Below, one piece after another: positions 6,688 through 34,962 of a DNA stretch of 64,000 nt. Source of the DNA: Elsinoe ampelina (taxonomy: Eukaryota); contig ML992514.1 of the NCBI GenBank assembly GCA_010093995.1, forward strand, positions 1 through 64,000, in the 5' to 3' direction. The notes under the pieces are model-generated. The model did no database searches, had not been told where the DNA came from, and saw nothing but the letters and a program-made list of their open reading frames with translations. The position numbers and the translations under genes were made by a program. Numbering within the stretch: position 1 is the stretch's first letter; every line of letters begins with the position of its first letter.

Positions 6688-7756
6688 ATGGAGGGACGAG
6701 CAGCAGAAATTTGCATGGAGGATGAAGGTTGCCCATCGTCAAAGGTGAGTGGCCACAGCCTCAAACGATGGTTGAGCTCAGTGCTGATTAGACCTCAGTC
6801 ACGATCCCTCCTAGGAGGTTCTCGGTAAATACTCTCAAGAAGATCTCGCCTCTTTCGCCGACCAGCAGATGCCACCTCGCGACTTTGAGGGGCGCGGCGC
6901 AGACCTTGCCGACCTTGAGCAGCGTGTGGACAAGGCTGCAGAAAAGCGAAACGTTCGCCGAGCCTATATCGACGGGGGTGAAATACCGGGTTCGCTACCG
7001 TGGCATGGTACCAGAATGAGTCAATGACTGATATAACTACCAGAAGACGGCATCACAGCCAGTGAAGCACGCTACGACACAATGAGGGCTGGCCTCCTTA
7101 CCCAGCTTGGTCTACCTACCACAATCGAATCCGACCTTGCGACCAGCAACGCCTCTGTCGACGCACTTCAGCAGCAAAAGGAGGCCTTAGAGGAGGAAAG
7201 AAACAATGCGTTGACCGAGATCAAGCGGCTACTCAAAGTCGAGCGTGAATTGAAAGAAGGTGTCAAAACAGCCAAGAACGCCGCTGGTCAAGCTGAAGCG
7301 AACATGAAGGAGGCCAACAAATACCGTATGCAGACCGAACAAAGCGTGGAAAAGCTGACCAAAGAGAGGGACGATGCTATCAATGCGAAAGATGCAGCTT
7401 TGGACCAGGTGAGGGACCTAAGAAGAGAAAAGGACGAGCTTTCGGGCAAACTGAGCCAACGCCAAAGCGAACTCAACAGAGCGCTGAACCATCGCCCTCT
7501 ATCGGACCCTCAACCCTACCAGAGTCCTCCCGGTGTACTCGCCATGAGGCGAGAGCGTGTGAGCGACGCGCCAAGACCAGTCCACTCGCAGATCGCAGAT
7601 CTCCGTCGCAAGCTCGACGCTCGGAGAGCGGACACTGCCGCGGCGGGTACAGGTGGCGGAGGTGGGGGCGGAGCTGCTGGTGGAGTTGCCGGTGGAGTTG
7701 CTAGCGCAGTTGCTGGTGGAGTTGCCGGCGGGGCTACTGGCAGAGCTACTAGCTGA
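6688..7756 (+). CDS. Hypothetical coiled-coil protein with Gly/Ala-rich tail; possibly pseudogenised; start uncertain
   Basis: ORF 7082-7756 extends upstream through putative introns 6745-6814 and 6990-7043. The Gly/Ala codon repeat continues in frame past the TGA at 7754-7756. Confidence 0.45.
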
Positions 7757-8435: not shown

Positions 8436-8762
8436 TGTTTGGGCAAGAGAGAAATCCGGTGTCCAAATCATGATCCATGGGACTGTTGTTCAAGCATCAC
8501 CGCACTTTGAGCTCGAATCCCAGCTTACCAAGTACCCTGTACGCACATAATGCAGCGATTGAGAAATGCAGTCCAGAGGTCGAATGCTTTTTGAAAGGCA
8601 GCTGCTGACAAGAAGAGCCTCCCACGTCACCTTAGTGTAGATTTATCTGCAACCGTTATGTCCGTAGAGATCACGTCGACGACTTCTACAAAAAGGTAGA
8701 CGAATTCGGCTCCATAGACATAGGAGAGACCAGGGTAGAGCCTCCAACAACACTAGACGAGC

Positions 8763-8767
8763 AAAAA
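8763..8767 (-). terminator. RNA polymerase III terminator (T5) of the tRNA gene
   Basis: TTTGCTTTTT immediately 3' of the tRNA on the minus strand. Confidence 0.8.
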
Positions 8768-8772
8768 GCAAA

Positions 8773-8911
8773 TTCCGATGCGGGGAATTGAACCCCGGCC
8801 TTGTCGGTGCTTTCTCATGTGAGAATTGAGAGCGACAAACTTTGAACAGTTAGAGAGTGCTTCAATCAGCGTCAAGGGTTAACCTACTCCTAGCCACTAG
8901 ACCACATCGGA
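8773..8911 (-). tRNA. tRNA-Glu(CTC) with a canonical intron (8808-8826) and a 48-nt GT-AG insert (8840-8887)
   Basis: Spliced sequence TCCGATGTGGTCTAGTGGCTAGGA|TTTGTCGCTCTCA|CCGACAAGGCCGGGGTTCAATTCCCCGCATCGGAA. Acceptor stem TCCGATG/CATCGGA, D stem GTCT/GGAT, anticodon stem TGTCG/CGACA, T stem CGGGG/CCCCG; intact A and B boxes. Confidence 0.93.
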
Positions 8912-9959
8912 CAATGTTTGAGTTCAACACATGCAAGAGAAATATATATAGCAGCACGTTGATAGTTCCGAGAATCTTGGGCCTGGTGGGACTATCCATC
9001 CCGGGCCGCGGGTATGAGGGATCACTCCTAGCAGAGGACCTCGCAGCGTGCTTATCCTCTTTCTATGACAGAATCTCAGATCCCCAGGATGTCGAGCATA
9101 CCGGTGGAGTGGATGGTGTCGAGTATTGTTCCACATGCGGTATGGCAAATTCGCGGTCCAGGTGTTTCATTGTACAGGGGAACATGTGCAGGGCACCAAT
9201 GCCCCTCGGAGCGAGAACAAGGATAAGTTACGAGAGAGACTTACTGCAATACTGGTTACCAGTCAAGATGGCGCAGAGACGAAGGCAGCATGAAAGCTGG
9301 TGCGAGGTGAGGTCGTGGACCAGTCTTGGCGCACATTCTCCATTTCATTGGGGCCGTCTTCCTCTTCAGACCTTTACCACATTGCCCTAATTCTGCCTAG
9401 AGATCATCGCAGATTTTACTAGAATGGATGTCTATTGCTGCATATATCTCGCACATGACAGGCGCAATCTTGCTCGAAGGCCACGTCGAACCGTCATGCT
9501 CTACATTTATACTATCATGTCCATCTGGTAGCGGACTCACTCCAACACGTCGACACGTCGGGCCTCAGGGCATATTAGCAGCGACTCTGACACGATGCCT
9601 CTGGACGCTCGTACTGTATGCCTTACAGTAGCAGGCCATCTTGACCAACCGCGCTAGGCATCTCCGGTGACAGGTCGATCATGACGGCACAGCAATCTCG
9701 GAGTTCTACGAGATGCAATTCCACAGCCGTGGCGCGGTAGGTGAAGCGTGAACCATTGGGGAAGGAATTTTCTACAGAGCCATTTCGGGAGGTGCACTGA
9801 CTGCTGAGGCTCTAATGGTGCGACGCCACCAAATTGCACCCGCAGCTTACCGCGAAACACGAGCTCGGCTATAACCTATAACAAAGGGCATATTTCTAAA
9901 CAAAACTACAGACACATCCTACAGAGAAGAAACTCGCATTCTATCACAATAACGCCAAC

Positions 9960-11460: not shown

Positions 11461-11821
11461 TTTGGCGGTGATGAGTGGTTCGAGACGATCTGTGATGAAA
11501 CAAGTAGACCTGATGTGTTTGAGGCGATTGGTGGTGGTCATTTTCGAGAGGATACTCACGTCTACTTACAGCTTTGCTCGCCTCATTTGTCTCCATCTGG
11601 ACAATGGCACGTATTTCTAAGTCAAATTCCAGAATGAGGGCAGCAACAAGAATTGATGCTGTATAGTTGGTAGGGCATAAACTTCGAGACGCAGAGCCGC
11701 AGATTTGACCATCCCGTCCCTGGTTCACTGTGCTATATAAAGCACGTTCCCCATGTCTCACGACGGGTCGGACATTTTACACCCTCTTCGACCCAGACTG
11801 CTGTCTCTACCGATGGAACTA

Positions 11822-34839: not shown

Positions 34840-34962
34840 CACGGCTGCAGTGCCTTTCTAACGCAAATTTCTCTTGCCTTTTACCAGAGGAATCCGGGAC
34901 GGCCTGCAAACCGCCAGTATTCAATATTTGGACGAAACTGAAAAGTTGTTCGCAACTTTTTT
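34840..34962 (+). ncRNA. U5 spliceosomal snRNA (ends approximate)
   Basis: Invariant loop I GCCTTTTAC (34876-34884) closed by TTTCTCT/AGAGGAA and followed by CCG. Outer stem GCAG-GCC/GGC-CTGC. Sm-like site AATATTTGG (34923-34931). 3' hairpin AAAAGTTG-TTCG-CAACTTTT. TATATAA at 34812-34818. Confidence 0.88.

Follow-up and report, generated by a model that had tools for sequence, protein, structure and literature searches.

The minus strand of the window (the whole stretch of DNA analysed, 64 kb in length) carries, from position 8911 to 8773, an authentic nuclear gene for tRNA-Glu(CUC), from an ascomycete and of Pol III-type layout, which is interrupted twice, by a 48-nt GT-AG insert of spliceosomal appearance within the D stem and by a canonical tRNA intron of 19 nt. 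This anatomy, with two intron types in a single tRNA-Glu(CTC) gene, is real and lies far beyond chance. Its interpretation as a gene served by two splicing systems is reasonable but unproven. We give close to even odds to an active gene whose RNA depends on the spliceosome first and on TSEN afterwards, and that it is a natural working tRNA gene whose precursor passes through both nuclear splicing systems, probably as a Pol III transcript, is put forward tentatively, as rather less than an even bet.

With both interruptions removed in silico, the script-joined sequence gives a flawless 72-nt cloverleaf that ARAGORN names tRNA-Glu(ctc), and with the 48-nt insert alone removed the program reports tRNA-Glu(ctc) with a 19-nt intron at 37-38 (again on script-joined sequence). 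A good cloverleaf of tRNA-Glu(CTC) is seen by ARAGORN only once both inserts are gone, and the exons are without any defect. The continuous sequence 8911..8773 is recognized by the Rfam tRNA model with two large insertions, scoring 31.5 bits at a gathering score of 29 (E 9.6e-05 in a 501-nt search), and Rfam gives no family other than tRNA above chance at this locus. The locus was not picked up by Rfam scans of the whole window, neither at gathering thresholds nor in permissive mode. Default ARAGORN reports 0 tRNAs in the whole window, and ARAGORN allowing introns forces one 68-nt intron onto the locus and miscalls it as tRNA-Leu. An earlier note on this DNA had described a tRNA-Glu with two interruptions; this description was correct and every sequence item listed there is present, on the minus strand, its sequences having been written in tRNA sense. 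The features are collected in Table 1.

Table 1. Features of the doubly interrupted tRNA-Glu(CTC) gene and its immediate surroundings (positions in the window).
Feature	Position	Strand	Remarks
Whole interrupted tRNA-Glu(CTC) gene	8773..8911	-	139 nt; Rfam RF00005 and ARAGORN on script-joined forms
Exon 1, tRNA nt 1-24	8888..8911	-	24 nt; acceptor 5' strand, D stem, D loop
48-nt insert, GT...AG, between tRNA nt 24 and 25	8840..8887	-	
5' splice site GTAGGT	8887-8882	-	GTRNGT type
CTAAC branch site	8853-8849	-	branch A at 8850, 10 nt from insert end
Terminal AG of insert	8841-8840	-	
Exon 2, tRNA nt 25-37	8827..8839	-	13 nt; anticodon stem 5' strand and loop to A37
Anticodon CTC	8828-8830	-	inside exon 2
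Canonical tRNA intron, position 37/38	8808..8826	-	19 nt; ARAGORN
Exon 3, tRNA nt 38-72	8773..8807	-	35 nt; discriminator A at 8773
A-box-like TGGTCTAGTGG	8904-8894	-	in exon 1
B box GGTTCAATTCC	8794-8784	-	in exon 3
Run of five T (T5), likely Pol III terminator	8763..8767	-	5 nt past tRNA 3' end
TATATATA, possible upstream promoter element, Pol III or Pol II	8943..8950	-	-39 to -32 from tRNA 5' end
X3 contig over locus	8446..8902	.	457 nt, depth 6.01, 0 other letters, colinear, both inserts kept

The shorter interruption obeys the positional and pairing rules of ordinary eukaryotic tRNA introns, which are removed by TSEN and the Trl1 ligase. As set out in PMC10275265, these rules comprise the position 37/38, the pairing of C32 or U32 with an antepenultimate A or G, and a complementarity to the anticodon loop. 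That the 19-nt intron is canonical had already been claimed, rightly: ARAGORN places it at 37/38, its antepenultimate base is a G opposite C32, making the anticodon-intron pair possible, and it contains TGAGA, which is complementary to loop positions 33-37. In the bulge-helix-bulge (BHB) register its central helix is paired at 3/4 positions including C32:G, the outer helix at 4/4 and the inner helix at 3/4. Ordinary eukaryotic tRNA genes are described in the tRNAscan-SE 2.0 paper (PMC8450103) as limited to one intron, whereas the gene presented here has a second interruption of another kind.

The internal promoter elements, which we take to be an A box and a B box from their consensus sequences, are separated by 99 nt, or by 32 nt without the two inserts; the earlier claim of a spacing enlarged by 67 nt agrees with the measured gap. 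Such spacings between A and B box are tolerated by TFIIIC. No run of at least four T occurs within the gene, and A box, B box and the T5 run without an internal T4 are, as far as motifs tell, what a Pol III gene would need. For TATATATA a promoter function for Pol III or Pol II is possible, judged from its sequence and position. Upstream TATA elements are used by the Pol III genes of fission yeast. A scan for bacterial-type promoters and terminators revealed nothing relevant to the locus, and Pfam gave no informative match for the five neighbouring ORFs. A neighbouring carboxypeptidase fragment assigns the window to Ascomycota. The tRNA gene is flanked by the gene for a coiled-coil protein at about 6.8-8.1 kb and by another gene at 9.9-10.8 kb. 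Elsewhere in the window a U5 spliceosomal snRNA gene is found at 34840-34950 (+), uninterrupted and over the full model length (RF00020, 56.6 bits); it is the only match of Rfam at gathering thresholds in the whole window. A weak match to the C/D-box snoRNA sR28 at 11464-11515 (+) reaches 25.1 bits where the gathering score is 39 (E 0.019), and is maybe due to chance.

The longer interruption lies in the 3' strand of the D stem, at tRNA nt 24|25. The GT-AG insert claimed for this site indeed has the signals of an ascomycetous spliceosomal intron, i.e. a 5' splice site, a branch site and a terminal AG. Only one AG follows the branch A, namely the terminal one, and it stands exactly where removal restores the tRNA. 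GTAGGT starts 2 of the 23 pattern-defined candidate short introns in the window. The junction GGA|T is unlike the usual exon context of splice sites.

The significance of these signals was assessed with the boundaries of the insert held fixed, on 48-mers from 40 shuffles of the window (2,558,120) and from the real window (127,906). The intron criteria, CTRAY 9-25 nt from the end and a 3' site HAG, follow work on Neurospora (PMC4408805). An initial GT together with this branch pattern and HAG was found in 458 of 2,558,120 shuffled and 25 of 127,906 real 48-mers; GTRNGT with CTRAY occurred in 16 and 5 of them, respectively. The strictest combination, GTRNGT with CTAAC and HAG, was present in 6 of the 2,558,120 shuffled and in 2 of the 127,906 real 48-mers, and the insert is one of those two. 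In the tRNA alignment its boundary can be moved by one base, which would make position 25 a G, create a G10-G25 mismatch and yield ends that are not GT-AG; these chance figures are therefore to be multiplied by about 2. Chance is excluded as an explanation of the intron-like look of the insert.

The remaining dimensions of the insert are those of fungal introns as well. Its length of 48 nt lies within the range of Fusarium introns, given in PMC5677156 as 42-529 nt with a median of 57, and the putative intron of a neighbouring gene in the window has 54 nt. The distance of 10 nt between branch and 3' site falls inside the 9-25 nt window known from Neurospora. The 3' site of the insert reads AAG and not YAG. 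According to PMC4408805 YAG is found at 90% of the 3' sites of Neurospora, and AAG in several hundred introns; since that many introns use it, AAG can be considered as a minority form that does not exclude the insert from being an intron.

Several other descriptions of the insert were considered. A BHB motif, with its two 3-nt bulges on either side of a 4-bp helix, was not found at its junctions, where the central helix is paired at 2/4 positions (one of them G-U) and the inner helix at 2/4. Folded alone, the insert reaches only -4.2 kcal/mol; a cloverleaf-constrained fold of the full precursor was uninformative, as RNAfold fails to give the D arm even with the mature sequence. An internal duplication of the gene was rejected, since 284 of 500 shuffles reach the alignment score of the insert against the remainder of the gene. 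A repeat family was not seen within the 64-kb window: it contains no second copy, and the best other match covers 11 nt. Flanking target-site duplications or terminal inverted repeats, as expected of introner-like or transposon-derived introns, were not seen when the sequence was read by eye. An 8-nt palindrome, GGTTAACC, lies inside the insert just past the 5' splice site (window 8877-8884). An assembly artefact was rejected because the X3 contig, which comes from a different sample and a different study, matches 8446-8902 with 0 differences.

X3 is a second sample, from a study different from that of the probable source, and no run is recorded as RNA; that X3 to X6 are RNA is a guess. One of its contigs bears on this point. 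Over the neighbouring gene for a coiled-coil protein, 54 nt of the genome are missing from an X3 contig; its loose end maps to 6954-6983 and its aligned part starts from 7038, i.e. 6983 is joined to 7038. This is most simply explained by the removal of a 54-nt GT-AG intron at 6990-7043 (+). This putative intron has the 5' site GTTCGC and the branch sequence CTGAT, and the join leaves the reading frame open. Read directly, the joint 6983/7038 is not GT-AG; the intron reading requires the single mismatch of the record to fall at 7042. Since the 54-nt stretch reads as a removed GT-AG intron, run X3 is probably RNA. If this is the case, the tRNA locus is transcribed, and the assembled molecule is a precursor with both inserts that extends past the T5 run.

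A joint at 8888|8839 or at the 19-nt intron is present in none of the contigs of X1, X3, X4 and X5, a result to be read with the limit that contigs cannot show absence. The contigs of X4 and X5 do not cover the locus, and those of X3 do not cover 8903-9376. Mature tRNA, moreover, is lost from such libraries. A contig of X4 skips 36 nt with the ends GC..TA at 7668-7703 (+), in frame, within a Gly/Ala/Val-rich repeat of the coiled-coil gene; this is probably a strain difference in repeat length or an assembly collapse and not an intron.

Relatives with a similar interruption were searched for among metagenome contigs by a pattern of D arm, 40-70 nt, anticodon loop, 13-43 nt and T loop. Five loci were found and 0 of them are related; all are tRNA-Glu with the anticodon TTC and a duplicated 5' part. 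The exact exon 1 had 0 matches in genome and viral contigs, which says little as these represent prokaryotes and viruses, and the exact exon 3 stretch had 0 matches in the genome contigs, which, being prokaryotic, say as little. In the metagenome loci L001 (391-577), L003 (identical sequence) and L004 (391-576) a complete tRNA-Glu(ttc), located by ARAGORN at 453-524 in L001 and at 448-521 in L004, stands between the 5' half and the 3' half of a second tRNA-Glu. Both spacers can pair with one another, with 13 perfect pairs in L004, and in L004 the acceptor stems of outer and inner tRNA-Glu differ. One tRNA gene appears to sit, complete, within the intron in the anticodon loop of another. In L002 and L005, at about 391-520, a tRNA-Glu 5' fragment of ~26 nt lies ~25 nt upstream of a complete tRNA-Glu(ttc), and a 3' copy is absent; the arrangement resembles the scar of an integration.

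The earlier note had stated that this pre-tRNA apparently needs two different splicing machineries. Both types of interruption are confirmed, and as the insert looks spliceosomal and is without a BHB motif, two machineries are the simplest reading if the gene is used; the claim is borne out in part. Should the gene be in use, no known machine other than the spliceosome would suit the insert, and none other than TSEN the 19-nt intron. The anatomy, the statistical match to splice signals, the lack of a BHB motif and the recurrence of the sequence in a second sample are observed; the polymerase, the splicing itself, the order of the steps and the use of the product are inferred. A short intron of spliceosomal type would have been gained between nt 24 and 25 of the D stem, likely when an intron transposed or was reverse-spliced into the gene, which is how fungal U6 genes have been proposed to come by their mRNA-type introns. 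After transcription of the tRNA-Glu(CUC) gene, the nuclear spliceosome would excise the 48-nt intron in lariat form, with A8850 as the branch point, which would restore the D stem and the L-shaped body. The resulting 91-nt intermediate would be end-processed and exported, and the 19-nt intron would finally be removed by TSEN and the Trl1 ligase. Against this pathway stands that, U6 excepted, the spliceosome as a rule handles Pol III transcripts poorly.

That the spliceosome would act before TSEN is plausible and even likely, given what is described for the endonuclease. Its subunit Sen54 contacts the D arm, and in Cyanidioschyzon merolae the 37/38 intron is always removed last (PMC3728597); in budding and fission yeast the tRNA endonuclease resides on the cytoplasmic face of mitochondria, as stated in PMC10275265. 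A spliceosome-first order is likely by analogy, because Sen54 reads the D arm and the tRNA body, and because with a cytoplasmic endonuclease, as in yeast, only nuclear events can precede it. The further suggestion of a link between Glu(GAG) decoding and the activity of the spliceosome is unsupported and unlikely a priori; it would require the insert in all or most tRNA-Glu(CUC) copies.

Fungal tRNA families usually are multi-copy, and the locus could be a recently disabled copy of such a tRNA-Glu(CUC) family, which received the same intron-type insertion but never or hardly ever has it removed. It would then give rise to dead-end precursors and drift as a pseudogene, with GAG being read by the other copies and by wobble of tRNA-Glu(UUC). 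We regard this as quite possible, if doubtful. It would fit that the sole contig over the locus is unspliced and that no relative with the same insert is known from the collections searched (0/5 metagenome loci and 0 matches in the prokaryote genome and viral collections). It has to face the fact that the exons are intact, as are both promoter boxes (A and B), the terminator, the canonical intron including the A-I pair, and the three splice signals, but 72 nt of exon would survive long by chance and a recent loss also leaves exons intact. An artificial yeast pre-tRNA bearing an mRNA intron was, as reportedly published in 1990, spliced by the mRNA pathway, which speaks against an insert that stays in place. 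The same holds for the promiscuity of fungal spliceosomes, by which, according to PMC4408805, even introns that arise by chance are efficiently spliced, at any rate from Pol II transcripts.

In another proposal the tRNA is part of a capped Pol II non-coding RNA that starts from the TATA at -39 to -32; the insert would be removed co-transcriptionally and the tRNA excised by RNase P and RNase Z, like tRNA-like elements of the mascRNA type. Spliceosomal introns are most at home in Pol II transcripts, TATATATA lies upstream of the gene, and the X3 contig continues unbroken for 327 nt beyond the T5 run, to 8446. We nevertheless consider it unlikely. What a Pol III gene needs is present here, both boxes intact and a T5 run right behind the 3' end, an upstream TATA also serves Pol III genes in fission yeast, the X3 contig gives no strand, and a good intron would be expected to be mostly spliced, yet this contig is unspliced. 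Very unlikely is an insert that is not derived from an intron at all and represents filler or repair DNA resembling an intron by chance. Under relaxed criteria there is, in the Neurospora work, more than one potential intron per kb of random sequence (PMC4408805), and nowhere else in the 64 kb of the window does the insert recur; its boundaries, however, are set by the tRNA and not chosen, and with them even the relaxed pattern is found in 458 and the strict one in 6 of 2,558,120 shuffled 48-mers. Still less credible appears an ectopic tRNA intron cut by the tRNA endonuclease, as in C. merolae or archaea. Nuclear tRNA genes of C. merolae do have ectopic introns, one of them in the D stem (PMC3728597), but the insert pairs at only 2/4 positions in both the central and the inner helix, compared with 3/4, 3/4 and an outer 4/4 for the 19-nt intron of the same gene, and fungal TSEN, as described in PMC10275265, measures from the mature body and is known to cut only at 37/38.

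In the textbook view the three nuclear intron classes are separate worlds, and eukaryotic tRNA genes are described as having no more than one intron, at 37/38. If the reading of an active gene that uses the spliceosome and then TSEN is true, this would be the first known case of a tRNA that depends on the spliceosome, and spliceosomal introns would be able to colonise tRNA genes as they do U6 genes. If the precursor is processed, a naturally occurring tRNA precursor would be shown to be a substrate of the spliceosome. The locus would represent a clean case, from nature, of an intron gained by a gene that encodes neither an mRNA nor an RNA of the spliceosome itself, and a simple system for studying what couples splicing to the transcribing polymerase. 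It would also stand for a class of genes that standard tRNA finders miss, as seen here with default ARAGORN (none), ARAGORN allowing introns (Leu) and Rfam over the whole window (none). Even as a dead copy, the locus would capture the rarely seen transposition of an intron into a tRNA gene. Both leading readings, the active gene and the disabled copy, amount to a colonisation of non-coding RNA genes by spliceosomal introns in a new form.

In the literature searched, which comprises few subscription journals and no supplements (those of surveys could hold cases), no description of a spliceosomal-type intron in a tRNA gene was found. Nearest to the present case come the mRNA-type introns in the U6 genes of fungi, described first from S. 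pombe. The sole U6 gene of S. pombe contains an intron which the spliceosome excises, and similar introns are present in fungal U2, U5 and U1 snRNA genes and in rRNA genes; for the U6 introns an origin by reverse splicing followed by reverse transcription was proposed (all in PMC5855946). U6 is, according to an abstract, a Pol III transcript. Those introns are short, have canonical 5', branch and 3' sites, are otherwise unconserved and reside in a small gene for a structured non-coding RNA, other than a Pol II mRNA gene, and the insert resembles them in this. Unlike U6, the host is a tRNA that also holds a TSEN-type intron, and splicing is known for U6 whereas here there are signals only. A tRNA has no role in the spliceosome, therefore the argument that U6 introns lie "close to the active site" is inapplicable here. 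The nuclear tRNA genes of C. merolae are similar in having two or three interruptions, one of them in the D stem (PMC3728597). In contrast with the insert described here, which has splice signals and no BHB motif, all of those introns are of BHB type and are processed by one machinery, the tRNA endonuclease. Finally, the mRNA pathway is said to splice an engineered yeast pre-tRNA, a Pol III transcript, into which an actin-type mRNA intron was built (Kohrer, Vogel and Domdey, EMBO J 1990). That construct is artificial and has its intron at the site of the tRNA intron, whereas the present gene is natural and interrupted in the D stem; splicing of the construct would show that the spliceosomal step is feasible.
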